A stretch of DNA of 64,000 nucleotides from an uncultured Planctomycetaceae bacterium (GTDB taxonomy: Bacteria > Planctomycetota > Planctomycetia > Planctomycetales > Planctomycetaceae), in NCBI GenBank assembly GCA_963815195.1, contig CAWFGE010000015.1:704001-768000 (forward strand). The letters are read 5' to 3'. Made by a program: the position numbers and the translations under genes. The notes beneath the pieces are model-generated. The model did no database searches. It was not told where the DNA came from and worked only from the letters and a program-made list of their open reading frames with translations. Positions 9,003 to 18,836 of this stretch are shown in pieces; position 1 is the first letter of the stretch; every line of letters begins with the position of its first letter.

Positions 9003-9497
9003 TTATTCGGACCGCGTGTTGTACTCCACATCAATCGCCACCAAGAGCAACACCGCGAAGGCATAGACCAACAGCGCCACCGTCGCTCCACCGACCAGGA
9101 TCCCAAAGCAGTTGTAAACGACGTACCGCCTCAAGGGGCCGGCTTCGGTTTTCATCACGATTTGCCCCATCTCCGCCAGCATCACGAAAGTTATTAAACC
9201 GATCAGCGCGGAGAAGATTTTCAAGATGAGCGAAAGCGTGCGGAGTTCCTCGTGCCGCCGGCGTTTTACGGGACGCGACGGGGCGGCGGAAACGGGAAGT
9301 CCGGGATCCGATGCCATGCGGTAATCCGCGAACTCCATTTCCGGTTCGGGGGCGGCACGCGTCAGCGGCGGCGGAACCCGCGGCCCGGCGGCCGACTTTT
9401 GACACTGGGGACACAACTTCGGGCGGGGTTTGTCGTCCGGCACCGCAAACTTCCGGCGACATCCCGGACACTCCCATTCCACGCGCTCGACGGCCAT
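9003..9497 (-). CDS. Zinc-ribbon membrane protein (hypothetical)
   Basis: CPGC...CPQC, Pro-rich linker and two C-terminal TM helices. Start MAVERVEW. Confidence 0.75.
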   Translation of the reverse strand: MAVERVEWECPGCRRKFAVPDDKPRPKLCPQCQKSAAGPRVPPPLTRAAPEPEMEFADYRMASDPGLPVSAAPSRPVKRRRHEELRTLSLILKIFSALIGLITFVMLAEMGQIVMKTEAGPLRRYVVYNCFGILVGGATVALLVYAFAVLLLVAIDVEYNTRSE

Positions 9498-9764
9498 AAC
9501 AATTTGCCACTTCCAAAAAGGCGAATAAAAACCGATCACAAACAACTCCCTATTTAACGGAAAGCGATCGCCCATGCCAAGAAAATCGAGCGAATGTTCC
9601 ATCGCCGGCCGCAGCGTTCGCCATGCCGGTGGATTCGCGGCAGCCGGTTTTCTTTGGCTTCCAACATTTGACTGAAAACCTAAGGGACTGAGATAGTATG
9701 GAGTGTACGGTTTCTCTTGTGTTTGCTGCTGTGATCGATGTGCTGACCGAATCCGATCGACTCG

Positions 9765-12700
9765 ATGCCCAACTTTTCTTTTCAGTTCCACACGCTGCTT
9801 AATGAATTGGACGAACAGGACCAACAGGCGATTTTGGCCGGCGTCTTGTTTTACCCGGAAATCTCTGCGATCGGAAAGAACCAGGCGGCGGTGCGGCGTC
9901 AGCTTGTCCGGCAGATCAAACACATCGTCGGGGAAGGCCCGCCCAAGGATCTCTGGCGGCGGCGGGCTTTGGCGGAACCGCCGGTCGTGCGAACGATTTC
10001 GCTGACGCTTGAACCGCCTCGGAAACAAATCGCCTGGCGGTCGCCGGTGGAGTTGACGTTTCAGGTCGTCCCCTGGCGGCATGCGGAATCTTTTTGGCTG
10101 GCTTATGTCCCGGTTCTGGGGATCGAAGTCTTCGCGGACTCGGAAGCGGAACTCTTGGAACTCGTTCCGCGGCACATCGAGTTTGCCCTCAAGCGAAAAG
10201 GCATGACGGAATCGCTGGCTCCCTTGATCGCGCTGGAGCGGGTGGGGGCGCTCAAGTTGCTGACGATTCAAGAACACATCACGCTGCCGACGCCCAAAGA
10301 GATCGAAAAAGCCGAAGGAGAGCAGAAGCCGAAATCCACGCTCAAGGAAGTCGCCACGCGGATGTCTTCTTTGAAGCTTCCGCCGGCTTACGAAATGGAA
10401 TCGACGTTACAGCAGTTGGCGGAGCTTTTGGGCGGATCTCAGCCGCGAAGCATCCTCCTGGTGGGGCCGTCGGGCGTAGGCAAGACCGCGGCGGTTCAGG
10501 AACTCGTGCGCTCCCGGTCCCAGTTCGGATTGGGGGATAAAGAGTTCTGGACCAGCAGCGGAGCCGCGGTTTGTGGGCGGGACCTCGGGGTTCGGCATGT
10601 GGCAGGAGCGCTGCCGATCCCTCTGCGAAGAAACCAAGCGCCGCAAGAACGTGGTGCTGCATCTGGGATCGCTGTTGGAACTGATGGAAGTCGGGCGCGG
10701 CGGGGGGTGCGGGCAAGGCGTCGCGGACTTTCTCCGCATGCCGATGGACCGCGGGGAGATTGTGATCCTCGTCGAATGCACGCCGGAGCAGCGCGTGGTC
10801 GTCGAACGCGAATCGCCGGGCTTGTTGCGTTCGCTCGCCGAGGTCCGCGTGTTGGAGCCGCCCTTGGAAACGGGGCGAAAGATCTTAAAATCGTCCGCCG
10901 ACGCAAGGGCCGCGCGGAAACAAGCCGCGCTCAAGCCCGATGCCTTGGAACGGCTGGATCGGCTGCACCGCCGATATGCCACGTATTCGGTTTATCCGGG
11001 CCGGCCTTTGCGGTTTTTGGGAAACCTGCAAGAAGACACGCCGGCGGACCACACGATCTCGGCTCAAGATGTGATCGCGGCTTTTTCGCGCGAGACGGGT
11101 TTGCCGCGATCGCTGCTCGATGAATCGCAGCCTCTGGATCTGGACGACCTCCGGGCCTGGTTTTCGGGGCGAGTCTTCGGGCAAGGTCACGCGGTGGATT
11201 TGATTGTCGAATTGATCGCGGCCGTCAAAGCGGGGATGACGCAGCCCGACCGCCCGATCGCCTCGCTGCTCTTTATCGGTCCCACGGGCGTGGGCAAGAC
11301 GGAAATGGCCAAGACGATCGCCGAGTTTTTCTTCGGGGACCGAGAGCGATTGATCCGCATCGACATGAGCGAATACGCCGACCCCTTTGCGGTGGATCGA
11401 CTGATCGGCGGGCGGTTTCAGAAAGAAGGCGTGCTCACGTCGCAAGTTCGCGACCAGCCGTTCGGCGTGGTGCTGCTCGATGAATTTGAAAAAGCCGACC
11501 CCAGCCTGTTCGATTTGCTGCTCCAGGTTCTGGGCGAAGGCCGGCTGACGGATGCCTCCGGCCAACTCGCCGACTTTCGCAATTCGGTGGTAATCATGAC
11601 GTCCAACCTGGGCGTCGAGTCCACCGGCAAAGCGGGATTCGGCTTCCGGGACGATTCGGAAAACCCGCTCTTCCTTCGGCAGCATTTCACCGAGGAAGTC
11701 AAAAAGTTTCTCCGCCCGGAGCTTTACAACCGCATCGACCGCATCGTCGATTTCGCCCCGCTCGATCAAAACACGCTCCGCGGCATCACCCGCCGGCAGC
11801 TTGAGCTTCTCCAAGCGCGCGACGGCATCCAATACCGCGGCGTGGCGTTGTGTGTCGAGGACGGCGTGCTCGATGAATTGGCCGCGAAGGGATTTGATCC
11901 GCGCTACGGCGCGCGGCCGCTCAAGCGGGTTATGGAACGCGAACTCTTGAAACCCTTGGCCGTCGGCATCAACCGCTACACGGGGAATCATCCGCTCGCA
12001 GCCCACATCGATTGGGCCGAGGGCGTTCGGGTTCAGGTCAAAGCCGTCCCCGCCGAGCCCGGCACGCGGGTCAATCGGTTGGGCGTGGCCGCGAACGACA
12101 CCGCGGCCCAATTCGCCAAAGACCTGGCCACGCTGCGCCGCAAGGTGCTGCGGTTGGAAGGCTCCGTGACGACGTTGGAGTTCCAGAACGAACTGTTCCG
12201 CCTGGAGCAACAACGCGGCCAGCGCATCAAACGCAGCCTGCGACCCGACGGGGAACTCGAAGCCCGCTGGAAAGAATTGCACGAACACCTCGCCGCGATG
12301 AGCCGGTGCATCCAGGATGTGACGCATCTCGAGGACGATGTGCTGATGGCGATCTATCAAAACCAGGAAGTCGATCTGACGGATTCCCGCGAGATGTTTG
12401 GGGAGTTGGAATCCCTTTGGCAGGAGGTCCTGTGGTCGGCCTATGCCGCGACGCTCGATCGGAAGACGAGAGATCAAATCACGCTCGTGATTTATGCGGA
12501 AGACACCGCCGCGTTGATCGAACTCGCCGCCGCGTATCGCGCCCTGATCGAAAAGCGAGGCGACCTGGTGCGGTGGATGGGGTTAGTTTCGGCCCAAGGC
12601 CATTCCAAGCCGAAACTGGCGGACGGTCAATCCTGGATCGGAAAGATCAAAGTGAGCGAACCCAGCACGCGGTTGATCGGTCAGTCATTCAATCAGGATT

Positions 12701-13071
12701 GGAAGGCGGCTTTCAAAGCGGCTCCGAAGTGCGTGGGTCTCGGCCTGCGAATCACGGGCAAGTTGGCGTTTCCGCTGTATCATCTGGAGCAGGGCGTGCA
12801 TTTGATCTCGGCCGATAGGCACGGGCACCGGTGTTATGTCGATACGGCCCTCGCGGATTACCCCAAGTATCAACCGCCTTACAATGTGGACCGCAAAGGC
12901 TTTGCCGACGATCAAGTCAAACGCCGAACTTACAACAAGAATGCAAACAAAGTGGAAGACCATTGGCTCGACAAGGAACAGTTTTGGGACGGGGTGGTGC
13001 TCGAGGAACCGCTTATCGAACTCGTGGAAGCCCGCCTTCAACTCGACGCCGACGAGCTACTGGCCGAGTGA
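9765..13071 (+). CDS. Atypical ClpA-like double AAA+ ATPase no.1 with C-terminal release-factor-like domain (apparent +1 indel ~10565)
   Basis: D1 Walker A GPSGVGKT. D2 [49 protein letters not shown]. Removing one C at ~10565 gives TSSGARFVGGTSGFGMW and joins ORFs 9765 and 10573. Confidence 0.85.
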
Positions 13072-13098
13072 CGGGCGATAGGATGGGATGATTTGCCA

Positions 13099-16000
13099 AT
13101 GGAAGTTTCGGTTCCGATCTTGGTGCTCTCGACACGAAGGCCCGGGGAGAAAACGCCCACGTACATTTTGCGGCCGGTGTTTTTCCCTGCGCCGGAAACG
13201 CGGGATTACAACCTGGGGCGAGGCACCGCCAAATTGGCCGCCAGCTTGAGGAAGCTGCTCAAGCAGTTGGCGGAGGCCGGCAAGCACGAACGCTTTTCCC
13301 AGTACATCTATGCCCCGCCGTTGGAAGGGCAGCGGCTCAAGCTGACGTTGGAACTGAAGCGCTCGACCGAGAAGCCGGTGTTCTACGCGGTCTCGCTCAG
13401 GGCGCTCGATCGCCAGATTGCGTGTTTCCCGATGCTGCCGGGCGTGTGGTTCGAGATCCCGAAGGACGGGAACGAGAGCCTGCACGACCGGGCGACCGCA
13501 GTGCTCACGGAGTATTTCCGCAAATTGGAGCGGGAAGAAGAGACCGTCGCTCCCATTCTTCGCCGGGCTTCGCTGGACGGCAAAGCCTGGCTGACCACGG
13601 TGGAATTTGACGTGGAAACGGCCCCCGATCTCAAGAAGGCATCGTCGCTGTTGTTCGCCGCGTTGTTCGCGGGCGAGTCGATGGACGGGGCGACCGAATT
13701 GGACAACACCGGCCGCGATTTGGATTTGCTGTATCCGGACGACCTGGCCCGCAGCCTCTGCCGGGAACAAGAAGCCGAGGAGCTCACGCGATTGCTCGCC
13801 GCCCGCGACCGCCGGCCGGTGCTCGTGCTCGGTCCGCGGACGGTGGGCAAGACCGCGCTCGTTCACGAAGCGGTCTATCGAAAAGTCCAGCAGCAAACCT
13901 CCCGGTTTCGGAACCGCCGGCATACGTGGCTGTTGTCGCCGCAGCGTTTGATCTCCGGGATGAGCTACGTCGGCCAATGGGAGAACCGCCTGCTCGCGAT
14001 CCTCAAAGAATGCCGGAAAAAAGACCACATCTTGTACTTCGACGATCTGGTGGGGTTGTTCCGCGCGGGAGTCTCGCGGGATTCGGACCTGGCGGTGGCG
14101 CATGTGCTCAAGCCGATTCTGGAACAGCGGCAGGTGCGGATCGTGGGCGAAGCCACGCCCGCCGGGTTCCGCGTGCTGCGGGAACTCGACCGCGGGTTTG
14201 CGGATTTGTTTCACGTCATCTCGCTCCAGGAGCCCGATCAAGAAACGTCTTTGCGAGTGCTGCTCAGCGTGATTCGCCAGTTGGAACGGCGGTCTCGCTG
14301 CCAATTCGATCTGGAAGTGCTGCCGACGGTGATGGATTTGGCCCGGCGGTTTTCGCGGGAGCGGGCGTTTCCCGGACAGCCGGCGTTGATGCTCACGCGG
14401 CTCGCTTCGAGACATCCCGGCACGACGATTACCCGGCAGATCGTGCTCAAGGACTTCGAATCGCAAAGCGGCTTGAAGATCGCCTTTCTCGATCCCGCCG
14501 AGCGCCTCCGCCGGGAGGACATTCTCGCGGGCATCGAGCAGATGATGGTCGGCCAGAAACCCGCGCTGGAAGCCGCCGCCGATGTGATCTCGATTGCCAA
14601 AGCCCGCATCAACGATCCCGAACGGCCGTGGGGCACATTTTTGTTTCTCGGCCCGACCGGCGTGGGCAAGACGCAGTGCGCGAAGGCCATTGCCAATTAT
14701 CTGCTGGGCAGCCCCGACCGCATGATCCGCTTCGACATGAACGAGTTTCTTTCGCCCGGCGATGTGTCGCGGCTGGTGGGGACGCTCGATCAACCGGAAG
14801 GGCTCTTAACCTCGGCCATTCGCCGGCAGCCGTATTCGGTGGTGCTCTTGGACGAAATCGAGAAAGCCCATCCCGCCGTGTTCGATCTGTTGCTGCAGGT
14901 GCTGGGCGAAGGCCGATTGACCGATGCCCTGGGCCGGACCGCCGACTTCCGCAACGCGGTTTTGATTCTCACCTCCAACCTCGGCAGCCAGCAGGCGGAA
15001 AACTCTGTGGGGTTCCAGCCCAGCGAGATGTCCAAGCATCAAATCTACGTGGCGGCGGCGGAAAGATTTTTCCGCCCGGAGTTTTTGAACCGCTTGGATT
15101 TTCTGATTCCCTTCGATCGGCTGACCAAGCCGGAGATTCGCGAGATTTCCCGCCAGGCGGTGGAAGCACTCGGCGAACGGGAAGGGTTTGTGCGGCGGAA
15201 GTGCATTTTGCATCCGGACGATTCGGTGCTCGATTACGTGATCGCGCGGGGATTCGATCCGCGGTGGGGCGCGCGGGGCGTCCGGCGGATGATCGAGAAG
15301 GATTTGATTCGCCCGGTCGCCGCCGCCCTCGCGAAAACGCCGCCCGCCGGACCGACCGTGGTGAGCCTGTGGGCCTGTGACGATTCCATCCAAGTCGATG
15401 CCAGCACGCTGACGGAAATCGATCCGCTGCCCCGCTGCCGAGGCCAGTTTTCGCCGGACGCCTCCGAGCCGACGTTGGAGCGAATCCGCGCTCTCCTCAA
15501 GCGGCTCTTGGAAACCTGCCAGGCTCATCGGCCTTCCGGTCCCATGACGTCCGGCAACATTCGGCCGGAGCAGTTCCATTACCTCGCGATGGTCGAGGCG
15601 ATCAATCACCTGGAAACCCGCTGCCAGGAACTCAAGGAGCATTTGGGGGCCGGCGCGATCCACAACCGGCTCTCGGCGGACAGGGCGCTGCGCGGGGATT
15701 CAAATCTCCGGCCGGCGGGCGGGGCGGACGCATGTCTGGCGAAGTTGGGACACGCCGAGGCGTCGCATCATGCACGAAATGCTGACCGCCGACGACGTCC
15801 ACGATTATCTCCACGAAGTTTCCAGCGGCTCGGCGACTCCATGATCCCGCCGACGCGTTGGAGCCGCTCATCTCGCAACTGGCATTGCTCGACGTCCTGA
15901 CGCCGGCGGACGAGGGTTGGCGGCACGAGCACGTGCTGGCTGTTGTGCGGGGTTTGCAGTCCTCGCCCGTGGCCAGAAATCGCCTGCTCCGGATGTTGCC

Positions 16001-16538
16001 CGAAGCTTTTCAGTTTTCCCATTTCGGCGAAGACGCCCTCGCGGACTTGGGGTTGGAATCGCACGCCGCGCATTGGGATGTGAAAGATTCTCAAGACGCC
16101 GGCCTCGAGCTCTCGGAAGCGGCCCGGAAGCTTATGGCGGAAGTTCGCTGTGATGTGATCGGCTTCGAAGGACTGAATGCGATGCGATTGTTGTCCGGCG
16201 AAGGGGGCACGCACCTGTGCGTGCTGGCATCGGGGCGGTTGATCCCGTTTCAAGTCGAGCTGCGTATTGTTCCCGAAGACGCGACGGCGGATGATGTGAT
16301 TCGGTCCGTGCTGGCGGAGCATCTGGATTGGCTCAAGTCCCGGCGGTCGCAACCGGCCGCCGACAGCGATCCGCTTTTCTCTTTGAAGCCCGCCGTGCGG
16401 ATTTATGATGAGCGGGGATTGATTCTCGATTTTGCCACCGGACAGGCGTTGGAAGAGGTGAACCTGTCCGCTCCGCGGTTGCTCAAGGATTTGATTCTAG
16501 CCCGCCTGCCTTTGCCCGCGGAACTTGTGACAGGTTGA
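13099..16538 (+). CDS. Atypical ClpA-like double AAA+ ATPase no.2 with C-terminal release-factor-like domain (apparent indels ~15646 and ~15839)
   Basis: D1 GPRTVGKT / ILYFDDL. D2 GPTGVGKT / [38 protein letters not shown] 15858-16538 is the frameshifted C-terminus and has the same RF-like motifs as gene no.1. Confidence 0.8.
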
Positions 16539-16544
16539 ACTGCC

Positions 16545-18836
16545 ATGCCGACGCATCGCGTGCCTATTTTGTTGATCCAGGATTCGGAGGGGTTTTGGTC
16601 GGCCCAGCCGGTGGAACCAGACACGGCTTTGGTGGGAACCGGAGCGACCGCCGCCGATGCCCTCGCCCAGATCAAAACGTATCTGGATTGGTCGTACGAT
16701 CGCGATTCATGCAAGGAGATTCCGGACATCCAGGGGCCTACGCTCGCGCGGTTCAAGATTTCTGTGCGGCCGCATTACGTGGAACCGAATCGCGTTTATC
16801 CCTGTGCCGAGTCGATGGAATTGCCCGTGGACTGCGTCCTGGGCAAGCGGTCGGATGGATTGCTCACTTGCGTGGCTCCGATCGTGGGCGTGCGATTCGA
16901 TTACAACGAAAAGGCCGCGTTGGAATCGCTGCTCACGGATGCCGTGCTCTCGCAGCTCGCGGGGAAGACGCCCAGGCAACTCTCGCGGTATCTGCCGCCC
17001 CGGGCGATGGAGATCCGGGAATTGGCGATCCGCGTGAAGCCCCGCATTTGGCGGGACGGGGGCGAAGTTTATCTCCCCACGCTGGAAGAGATCGCCGACC
17101 CCATTGGGGAGAAATCGGTGCGGAAGCGGTTTTCGCGGGCCTGGCTGCGGGACGCGGAACTCGCGGAGCTTCAAAGCCGCTTGACGGAGGAACGCGCGAG
17201 CGTGCTGCTGCTCGGCGTGCGAGGCGTGGGCAAGACGACCTTGCTCGTGGATGCCGTCCGCGACACCGAGCGGTTGCTCTATCGGGCGGCCAAAGCGGAG
17301 GAACACGAGAACGGCCGGCGTTACCGCCATCGGTTCTGGATGACGAGCGCCGCCCGCATCATCGCCGGGATGCGGTACTTGGGCGAATGGGAAGCCCGCT
17401 GTGAGGAGATTCTGTTCGAGCTCTCCGAAATCCAAGGCGTGTTGTGCATCGAGAATCTGCTCGACTTGCTGCGGATCGGCGGCGGCGAAGCGTCGCAAAG
17501 CATCGCGGCGTTTTTGATGCCCTATTTGCAGCAAGGGGAACTCAGGATCGTGGCCGAAGCCACCTTGGACGAGCTGTCCGCGGCGGATCGGTTGTTGCCG
17601 GGCTTTTCGGATCTGTTTCAGAAGCAGCGTGTCGAAGCCCTTTCGCATCGCAGCATGGTCCAAGTGTTGGAGAAGGTGATCGACGCCGCCCAGCAAACAC
17701 ATCGCCGCCCGGCGGAATGCCGGGTCGATGTTCGATTGCCGGAGATCATTTTGCATCTCCACGAACGCTTCTTGCCTTACCAATCCTTTCCCGGCCCGGC
17801 CGTGCAGTTTTTGCGGGATTTGATCAAGGCCGTCTTCAAAGAGGATCGCCCGCGTCTCGAACCGGCCGATGTTTTTCAGGCCTTTGCCCGGCGGACGGGT
17901 GTGCCGGTGCGGTTTTTGCGGGATGATGTTCCCCTCGATTCCGACGAAGTGTTCGCGGAGCTTTCCCGCCAGGTCATCGGCCAGGAGGAAGCGGTGCGGT
18001 CGGTCGTGGAATTGATCGCCACGTTCAAAGCGGGTCTGAACAATCCACGCCGGCCTTTGGGAGTCGAGCTGTTCTGCGGGCCGACGGGGGTGGGAAAAAC
18101 CGAGCTGGCCAAGAAGCTGGCCGAGTTCTGTTTTGGCGAAGGCGAGGATCCCGACCGCTTGTTTCGCTTGGACATGAGCGAATACCAAGGCTACGGCGCG
18201 GGCCAGCGGATTTTGATGCAGCCCGACCGCTCGCCGAGCCGGCTGATTTCGCACATCCGCGAGAAACCGTTCTCCGTGGTGTTGTTGGACGAGATCGAAA
18301 AAGCCGATGCCGAGGTGTTCGACCTGCTGCTGAATCTCTTCGAGGAAGGCCGGCTCACCGATGCCTATGGCCGCACCACGCATTTTCAATCGACGATCGT
18401 GATTATGACGTCGAACCTGGGAGCCGAAAGCGTCTCGGCGTTGGGCTTCAAGCCGGCTTTTGCGCCGGCGTACGAATCGGCCGCGATGCAGTTTTTCCGG
18501 CCGGAGTTTTTCAACCGCATCGACGAGGTGCTCTCGTTCGCGCCGCTTTCGGAAGAATCCGTGCTCGAAATCACCAAAAAAGAACTGGAGGCTCTGAGCC
18601 GGCGCGAGGGGCTCTCTGGCCGGGCGATTCGCTTGGCTTACGATGAGGGATTTTTGAAGGACGTCGCAAAGCGCGGCTACGATGCCCGGTACGGCGCCCG
18701 GCCGCTCAAACGGTTTTTAGAATCCTCCGTGGTCACGCCGATTTCCGAATACCTCGTTTCCCACCCGAATTCGCAGGGAGAGACTCTTCGCTTGCGTTTC
18801 ACCGAGGCCGGTCGCGTCGCCGTGACGCCGACTTAG
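16545..18836 (+). CDS. Atypical ClpA-like double AAA+ ATPase no.3 (no C-terminal extension)
   Basis: Uninterrupted 763 aa ORF. D1 GVRGVGKT. D2 [42 protein letters not shown]. Confidence 0.9.

Follow-up and report, generated by a model that had tools for sequence, protein, structure and literature searches.

The DNA considered here is a stretch of 64,000 nucleotides from an uncultured Planctomycetaceae bacterium (contig CAWFGE010000015.1 of assembly GCA_963815195.1, positions 704,001 to 768,000), called the window throughout. It carries a gene, gene A, that encodes a two-ring AAA+ ATPase with a C-terminal module resembling the bacterial release factors (RFs) of class I, RF1 and RF2. It is the first gene of a conserved cassette in which three paralogous two-ring ATPases, A-B-C, lie closely packed, and the features of this cassette are collected in Table 1. 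In this assembly gene A is read in two frames, 9765..~10570 and 10573..13071. The second frame is an open reading frame (ORF) of 832 amino acids (aa) on the forward strand, and per Pfam it carries an AAA_2 domain (residues 227-390, E 1e-42) followed by ClpB_D2-small (residues 397-465, E 6.8e-15). The strings RDQITLVIYAEDTAALIELAAAYRALIEKRG, LRITGKLAFPLYHLEQGVHLI, ISADRHG and VKRRTYNKNANKVEDHWL are all present in this ORF, in that order, after ClpB_D2-small, and a flexible linker of ~20 residues ties the RF-like module to the D2-small domain. The two frames add up to a single gene when compared with the ortholog L032, of which residues 1-272 align up to position 10577 in one frame and residues 265-1077 align from position 10567 in another. 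Five intact homologues of gene A, found by a word-based search, are 1099-1129 aa long, at 59-62% identity.

Table 1. Features of the A-B-C cassette, in window coordinates
Feature	Position	Strand	Basis
Gene A, ClpA/C-like two-ring AAA+ ATPase of ~1100 aa with RF-like C-terminal module	9765..13071	+	Ortholog alignment, Pfam
Frame break in gene A, context GCGGTTTGTGGGCGG, within the D1 pore-loop region	10567..10577	+	Ortholog alignment
D2 pore-loop regions of A, B and C	11400-11470, 14780-14840, 18200-18275
Sensor-1 TSNLG, then KAGFGF loop: LGF-type motif at the position of the ClpC/ClpA ClpP-docking loop	11599..11646	+
RF-like domain 1, helical bundle (model residues 1-120)	12100..12459	+	AlphaFold2 model, VIA-align, profile
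RF-like domain 2 (model residues 121-250)	12460..12849	+	Profile, AlphaFold2 model, VIA-align
Low-confidence variable insertion inside RF-like domain 2	12592-12687	+
Conserved linker Y-x-P-P-x-G-I-x-R-R-G-A-I... replacing GGQ domain 3	12850..12918	+	Column frequencies
RF-like domain 4 (RRTYN...VEDH), C-terminal helix and stop codon	12919..13071	+	Profile, structural alignment
Gene B, paralogous two-ring ATPase, ~1100 aa when intact, with RF-like C-terminal extension from ~15350	13093..16538	+	Ortholog alignment, fold
Frame breaks in gene B	near 15723-15728 and 15816-15820	+	Ortholog alignment
Gene C, paralogous two-ring ATPase of 763 aa, intact, ending after D2-small, without RF-like tail	16545..18836	+

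The last 323 residues of gene A (12100-13068; tail A) are a class I release factor homologue in which domains 1, 2 and 4 are kept. No family model matches the tail by itself, and the resemblance was therefore examined with a sequence profile and with a predicted fold. Thirty family members of tail A went into the profile (profile A1), which was searched against the sequences of all chains in the Protein Data Bank (PDB). It retrieved 11 matches with E < 1e-3, every one of them RF2 or RF1; the best was Thermus thermophilus RF2 at E 6.2e-6, and the first protein that is not an RF appeared at 1.7e-3. The alignment to RF2 runs through three collinear stretches, namely RF2 residues 5-161 (domain 1 into early domain 2), 171-192 (the G-V-H strand) and 310-328 (the I-R-S-Y...D-H-R strand), and RRTYN...VEDH in the tail is the counterpart of the IRTYN...TDHR region of RFs. 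A search by sequence pattern with the single tail as query returned 54 matches with no relative among them.

The predicted structure of tail A, generated with AlphaFold2 on profile A1, is confident (predicted local distance difference test score, pLDDT, 88.4; predicted template modelling score, pTM, 0.84), and its domain 1 is made up of helices at residues 2-20, 23-44, 51-86 and 93-117. Foldseek returned 47 matches to this model with E <= 1e-3, and all those listed are RF1, RF2 or mtRF1(a), the best at 6e-9. When the model was aligned to RF2 (8p16_6) with VIA-align, 263 residues were paired, from model residues 2-316 and RF2 residues 4-364, with Z 17.0 and a root-mean-square deviation (rmsd) of 6.9 Å; domain 1 takes part in this alignment, model residues 1-120 pairing with RF2 residues 4-~110. 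Chains of ribosome-bound RF1 and RF2 that offer domains 2-4 only gave a tighter superposition (Z 14.1-14.4, rmsd 2.9-3.1 Å over 142-147 residues, 18-22% identity). The first VIA-align match that is not an RF stands at rank 42 and is a helical bundle that pairs with residues 1-117 only. The sequence-only reading of this DNA had proposed an RF-like domain with domains 1, 2 and 4 fused to the C-terminus of a Clp ATPase after D2-small, and both the profile and the VIA-align comparisons bear it out.

The same likeness is seen across the family. The three-domain RF shape is kept down to 25% identity, an E-x-G-x-H motif is invariant in the RF-like domain 2, and in domain 4 the R, Y and D of the RF signature are kept in 100%, 85% and 90% of members by column frequency. 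Of seven full-length homologues, one attains the gathering score of the Pfam PCRF family, the distant member P0007 (24.2 vs 24 bits), which also matches the prfB model TIGR00020 at 1.4e-4. The nearest ESM-Atlas clusters are PCRF proteins (score 0.89), which we treat as a lead only. In genomes of the same phylum the profile also catches, through its domain-4 part and at E ~1e-3, two open frames of 370 aa, which are taken from their length alone to be those genomes' own RFs.

What the tail has lost relative to an RF is as consistent as what it has kept. In each of the 151 members measured, E-x-G-x-H and RR-x-Y are separated by 41-52 residues (median 45), and from this uniform shortness it follows that the whole family lacks domain 3 with its GGQ motif; in T. 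thermophilus RF2 the corresponding stretches are ~139 residues apart, and in profile A1 56 positions. The absence of a GGQ domain between these motifs had been noted from the sequence alone, and the lack of any RF-1 match agrees with it. In place of domain 3 is a linker whose columns are themselves conserved (Y 86%, P 85%, P 94% and R 82%, then R 84%, R 100%, x and Y 85%). This linker, which is also basic, sits, going by RF structures, where the switch loop meets rRNA. We also considered the linker as the site of a vestigial GGQ and rejected this: the literal string occurs in 5 of the 151 members, the Gln column reaches 43%, and the glycine columns stand at 31% and 16%. The five members in question (P0010, P0030, P0037, P0048 and P0051) spell G-I-G-G-Q in the region equivalent to 12850-12918, probably by chance.

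Two further RF elements are trimmed. The profile alignment leaves a 5-residue gap facing PGAGG, the RF2 stretch at the N-terminus of helix alpha5, so that the alpha5-tip loop is deleted, and the counterpart of the PxT/SPF loop is a variable, basic, tight 8-residue hairpin with no conserved tripeptide. In the window this hairpin reads ISADRHG, which the earlier reading had taken for a shortened codon-reading loop, and the model and the variability of the family are in keeping with that. According to the available text of PMC3418547, domain 3 of RFs serves catalysis and the switch loop activation, with domains 2 and 4, including PxT and the alpha5 tip, reading the codon. Tail A is therefore an RF without catalysis, its domain 3 being lost. 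From its sequence it is predicted to be unable to hydrolyse peptidyl-tRNA, and, with the reading elements trimmed, it would presumably not read stop codons either.

Gene B also carries a C-terminal extension, and we modelled this tail from an intact ortholog (pLDDT 81.5, pTM 0.80). The top 39 listed Foldseek matches to the model are RF1, RF2 or mtRF1, the best at 2.2e-6. VIA-align placed it on RF2 with Z 13.9 and 13.8, on domains 2 and 4 with Z ~13 (rmsd 2.5-2.9 Å over ~130 residues), and on PrfH bound to the damaged 70S ribosome with Z 7-8. Tail B likewise has no domain 3, and a 23-residue helix lies between its last domain-2 strand and domain 4. At the level of sequence, the tail profiles A1 and A2 (the latter built from tail B) show a weak likeness (hhalign probability 64%, E 6.6e-5, 51 columns), profile A2 found no match among the PDB sequences (best E 0.71), and the window's own broken tail of gene B (15858-16535) compared to A1 gave an hhalign probability of 1%. 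The RF nature of tail B thus rests on fold. Tail B is a second, more diverged GGQ-less RF-like module, so that two of the three paralogs carry such tails, of two different kinds.

The order A (~1100 aa), B (~1100 aa), C (~760 aa) is found at 13 of 16 loci in the same phylum, where 4-nt stop-start overlaps are common; of the other three loci, two run into the end of a contig and the third has only A. We also collected 80 loci from named records of metagenome-assembled genomes (MAGs) and used for order counts the 50 that have at least 6.5 kb downstream of A. These comprise 37 with A-B-C, 6 with A-B, 5 with A alone and 2 with C upstream, and in these last two C lies ~6 kb upstream of A. Where the order departs from A-B-C, six downstream genes from three loci proved to be unrelated housekeeping genes. 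A quick maximum-likelihood tree of the D2 domains, rooted at the midpoint and including six canonical Clp ATPases from two cassette-bearing genomes, recovered A, B and C each as one clade (Shimodaira-Hasegawa-like approximate likelihood-ratio test, SH-aLRT, 75, 99 and 95). A and B are sisters (84), and all three together stand apart from the six canonical Clp ATPases (100).

An exhaustive search of 1.84 billion representative proteins, with clustering at 50% identity, placed 270 clusters in the family at E <= 1e-3, 82 of them at E <= 1e-10, and most of these clusters are ~1100 aa long with the match at the C-terminus. The cassette occurs in 2 of 41 genomes of close relatives (in none of 3 from the same genus) and, phylum-wide, in 30 of 401 genomes (13 among the 244 of high quality). 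One bacterial family has it, in single copy, in 19 of 23 genomes, including all 6 of high quality. Given the 270 clusters at 50% identity together with this near-constant presence in one family, we consider the family to be under selection. Named records with full-length matches are all MAGs, mainly of Planctomycetota, Acidobacteriota (Blastocatellia, Pyrinomonadaceae) and Verrucomicrobiota and their allies, with a few others for which binning is uncertain, and the proteins are publicly named ClpA or ClpC only. Of 157 retrieved proteins, 55 are shorter than 450 aa. These were considered as possible free-standing RF-like proteins, but several of them start inside D2-small and so look like gene fragments.

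The best PDB relatives of the motor are ClpB, ClpC and ClpA, and its NCBIfam ClpA and ClpB scores are far below the cut-offs. It has no counterpart of the ClpB M-domain, ClpB residues 395-527 being left unaligned, and no Clp_N match appears in the complete Pfam lists for the N-terminal part of the window's gene A or for gene B. In D1 the Walker A motif and the aromatic pore loop are kept, and the Walker B site, canonically hhhhDE, reads hhHLG[NS] in A, hhFDD in B and hC[IV][ED][NS] in C. In D2 the Walker motifs are canonical (GPTGVGKT and VVLLDEFEKA), and the pore-loop region has a 5-residue gap opposite GYVGY of ClpB. An aromatic D1 pore loop kept beside a degenerate D1 Walker B, with the D2 pore loop gone, is unusual for a threading motor. 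The N-terminal ~200 aa (9765-10364 in A and 16545-17114 in C) can be aligned between the A and C paralogs and, by look, consist of two tandem beta-beta-beta-alpha modules. A profile of this region had a sole PDB match, weak and a lead only, to the 67-aa protein 2yzt (E 0.045), which we take to be HicB-like.

A feature that the three paralogs have in common is an x-G-[F/L/M] motif no more than 24 aa after sensor-1. Counted as a motif only, and with a few genomes counted twice, it occurs in all 88 A proteins, in 55 of 57 B proteins and in 48 of 51 C proteins. Of four canonical Clp genes parsed, two have an LGF-containing loop after sensor-1 and the other two do not. LGF loops are an accepted marker of ClpP-binding unfoldases, per the available text of PMC10149685, and the conserved LGF-type motif of all three paralogs is a predicted ClpP-docking loop. 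This motif, the A-B-C triplet, the RF-like tail on B, the degenerate D2 pore loop and the frame break all go beyond what the sequence-only reading had described.

From these parts, the best-supported mechanism that we infer is a ClpP-coupled hetero-hexamer docking on the ribosome. The A, B and C paralogs would assemble into one hetero-hexamer, which the conserved LGF-type loops would dock on ClpP. The tethered RF mimics would be targeting devices and not enzymes, placing the motor at the ribosomal A site or decoding centre without the need of a stop codon, and the candidate targets would be stalled, vacant-A-site or idle ribosomes. There the ATPase would extract, and ClpP would degrade, a ribosome-bound polypeptide or factor, or alternatively the motor may remodel the ribosome. 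The sequence-only reading had likewise suggested that the tail could bring an unfoldase to the A site, with rescue, nascent-chain extraction or translation shut-off as the purpose, which is plausible. That a ClpP-coupled A/B/C hetero-hexamer, aimed by its tails at the A site, extracts or degrades a ribosome-bound polypeptide or factor is in our estimation plausible, if not quite probable. We hold more tentatively to the narrower version, in which stop-codon-blind RF mimics would carry the hetero-hexamer to stalled, collided or idle ribosomes and the motor would pull into the protease either the nascent chain or a factor trapped in the A site. A precedent exists in PrfH, an RF homologue for which there is, going by PDB titles, a structure on the damaged 70S ribosome.

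Several observations weigh against a ribosome-directed protease. Ribosome binding, ClpP binding and the hetero-oligomer are all steps that we infer, and what the tails have lost is precisely what makes RFs specific for the A site. The tails hang from the D2 end of the motor, which is proximal to ClpP, and not from the end where substrate enters, which makes the geometry of A-site docking relative to the pore uncertain. The D2 pore loop G[YFW][VIL]G was found in none of the 88 A, 57 B and 51 C proteins vs 5 of 5 canonical controls, and with the D1 Walker B degenerate in A as well, processive threading into ClpP is not assured. The check by profile and structure that the sequence-only reading had called for came out in two parts: the PDB profile matches at E < 1e-3 and the listed Foldseek matches were all RFs, and the PCRF match was not found for the window's tail (12100-13068), which has no Pfam (E <= 1), NCBIfam or PADLOC match. 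Queried singly against Pfam, 0 of the 30 family members match PCRF or RF-1. At the level of the locus, genes A and B are frame-broken here and the break sites fall outside public contigs, the triplet is incomplete within the flank at 13 of the 50 named loci (e.g., L078, L084, L093, L094, L121 and L143), and no other conserved neighbour, translation-related genes included, lies next to the cassette across loci.

Some of these same observations raise the possibility, which we consider real but doubtful, that the RF fold has been exapted for a non-ribosomal role, with the tails binding a protein substrate or adaptor, or folding back to regulate the ring or the gating of ClpP, and no A-site binding left. 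All known specificity elements (domain 3, the alpha5 tip and the PxT/SPF loop) are gone, the residues that remain invariant (E-x-G-x-H, RR-x-Y and D) lie in core strands and may merely hold the fold, the tails sit at the ClpP-proximal end, and no translation gene is linked to the cassette. However, the whole three-domain RF shape, domain 1 included, survives at 25% identity, it is kept twice, in A and in B, and conservation extends to the basic linker that stands in for domain 3. In addition, PrfH and mtRF1, with their altered reading heads, still bind the A site, per PDB titles and the available text of PMC3418547.

A further explanation is that the cassette is a conflict or defence module, in which the RF mimics would decoy or sense effectors attacking RFs or the A site, or, once activated, would occupy A sites and so shut off translation. 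Its spread is patchy (it occurs in 2 of 41 close relatives, in none of 3 genomes of the genus, and in 30 of 401 across the phylum) and extends to distant phyla, conflict-linked rescue pathways of the RF family are discussed in the available text of PMC6514570, and the AAA+ D2 domains resemble ClpB-like components of the PADLOC candidate systems DolB and PDC-M37B. The PADLOC matches, however, cover the generic AAA domain only, and the tails match nothing. One family also carries the cassette almost universally and in single copy (19 of 23 genomes, and all 6 of high quality), and the neighbours that were read are ordinary genes (leuB-like, IMPDH, a KdpD kinase), none of them common across loci, though no dedicated search for mobile-element or defence genes was made there. 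On balance we consider a defence role unlikely.

Another matter is whether the tails are made in this genome at all. The assembly carries many local indel errors: its rpoC is in at least five frame pieces (C19:19264-23363) beside an intact rpoB, and other Clp paralogs are fragmented too. With rpoC and these other Clp genes of the same assembly broken as well, assembly indel errors are a likelier cause of the three breaks in A and B than gene decay. Among sequencing runs that contain the window no RNA run is listed; one DNA run, from a soil metagenome, has 40% of the sampled words, and its contigs are identical to the window where they overlap it; they leave out 10393-10623 and 15475-15903, and hence all three break sites. 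A decaying pseudogene pair, with A and B truly frame-shifted and the RF-like tail not made here, is very unlikely in our view, for although three frame breaks fall in the 6.8 kb of A and B with gene C intact, the cassette is rare in this family and not found in three same-genus genomes, and the identical contigs stop short of all three sites, the breakage extends to the essential rpoC and to other Clp paralogs, each of the three breaks falls in a short homopolymer or GC run, and the frames are clean and conserved outside them. Such decay is independent of the other readings, and our estimates for the various readings are not meant to add up to certainty.

Compared to known systems, tail A shares with RF1 and RF2 the domain order 1, 2, 4 and the motifs of the MY-helix, E-x-G-V-H and R-T-Y-N...D-H, in line with the profile E of 6e-6 and the Z of 17, and it differs in having no domain 3 with GGQ, no alpha5-tip loop and no PxT/SPF loop, and in being fused to the C-terminus of a two-ring AAA+ ATPase rather than free-standing. 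PrfH, likewise an RF paralog, acts on damaged ribosomes and uses its domain 2/4 head to bind the A site with no ordinary reading of stop codons. However, per the available text of PMC6514570, PrfH is without domain 1 and keeps the catalytic glutamine, the reverse of tail A. PrfH is furthermore linked to RtcB; no conserved neighbour was found beside the cassette. The reduced RF-superfamily members ArfB, ICT1 and C12orf65, which the same text describes as used in ribosome rescue (PMC6514570), retain nothing but the GGQ domain and a tail and are thus a reciprocal reduction to the tail A family.

On the side of the motor, the cassette resembles ClpA/ClpC-ClpP in its two AAA+ rings, its AAA_2 and D2-small domains, the lack of a long M-domain (as in ClpA) and the LGF-type loop after sensor-1. 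In contrast to ClpA and ClpC, its proteins have another N-terminal region of ~200 aa in place of Clp_N, the three paralogs are obligatorily co-encoded with RF-like C-terminal modules on two of them, the D2 pore-loop GYVG is deleted, and the D1 Walker B is degenerate in A. A functional analogy only can be drawn to Cdc48/p97 with the eRF1-like Vms1/ANKZF1, where an AAA+ unfoldase works with an RF-fold protein on ribosome-bound nascent chains; the link between Vms1 and Cdc48 is described in the available text of PMC6514570. The folds are unrelated (the aeRF1 superfamily vs the bacterial RF fold), Vms1 is a separate and catalytically active protein, and the motor is Cdc48 and not a Clp ATPase. If the narrower version of the ribosome-directed mechanism is true, the cassette would be a fused bacterial counterpart of the Cdc48-Vms1 arrangement and the first bacterial AAA+ protease to recognise the decoding centre directly.

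The available text of a 2019 survey gives RF1, RF2, ArfB and PrfH as the bacterial RF forms, with both ArfB and PrfH keeping the catalytic glutamine (PMC6514570). These known paralogs keep the GGQ domain, and the survey, which was built on that domain, lists no other in the same text. Full-text literature searches yielded no account of an AAA+ ATPase with a fused RF module lacking GGQ; the supplementary lists of PMC6514570 may bear on the matter. What is new here is a large conserved family that keeps an RF minus its GGQ domain, wired twice onto a three-paralog Clp motor. If the modules find the A site, the Planctomycetes-Verrucomicrobia-Chlamydiae (PVC) group and the Acidobacteriota would possess a way of acting on ribosomes that is driven by ATP and coupled to a protease, and that lies outside current models of rescue or quality control. 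If they do not, the family would be a clear case of a translation-factor fold recruited as an accessory domain of an unfoldase. Either way, the public names ClpA and ClpC overlook the RF-like feature.

Two minor observations concern the region upstream of gene A. A small protein with a zinc-ribbon start (CxxC...CxxC) and hydrophobic C-terminal segments is encoded divergently at ~9003-9560 on the reverse strand of the window, and it is not conserved beside the cassette at other loci. Separately, loci L035 (16960-17328), L036 (2210-2812) and L037 (2299-3099), from three genomes of one family, have short ORFs just upstream of gene A that group with Clp paralogs by BLAST, and these may represent either a longer N-terminus of A or a small fourth gene.

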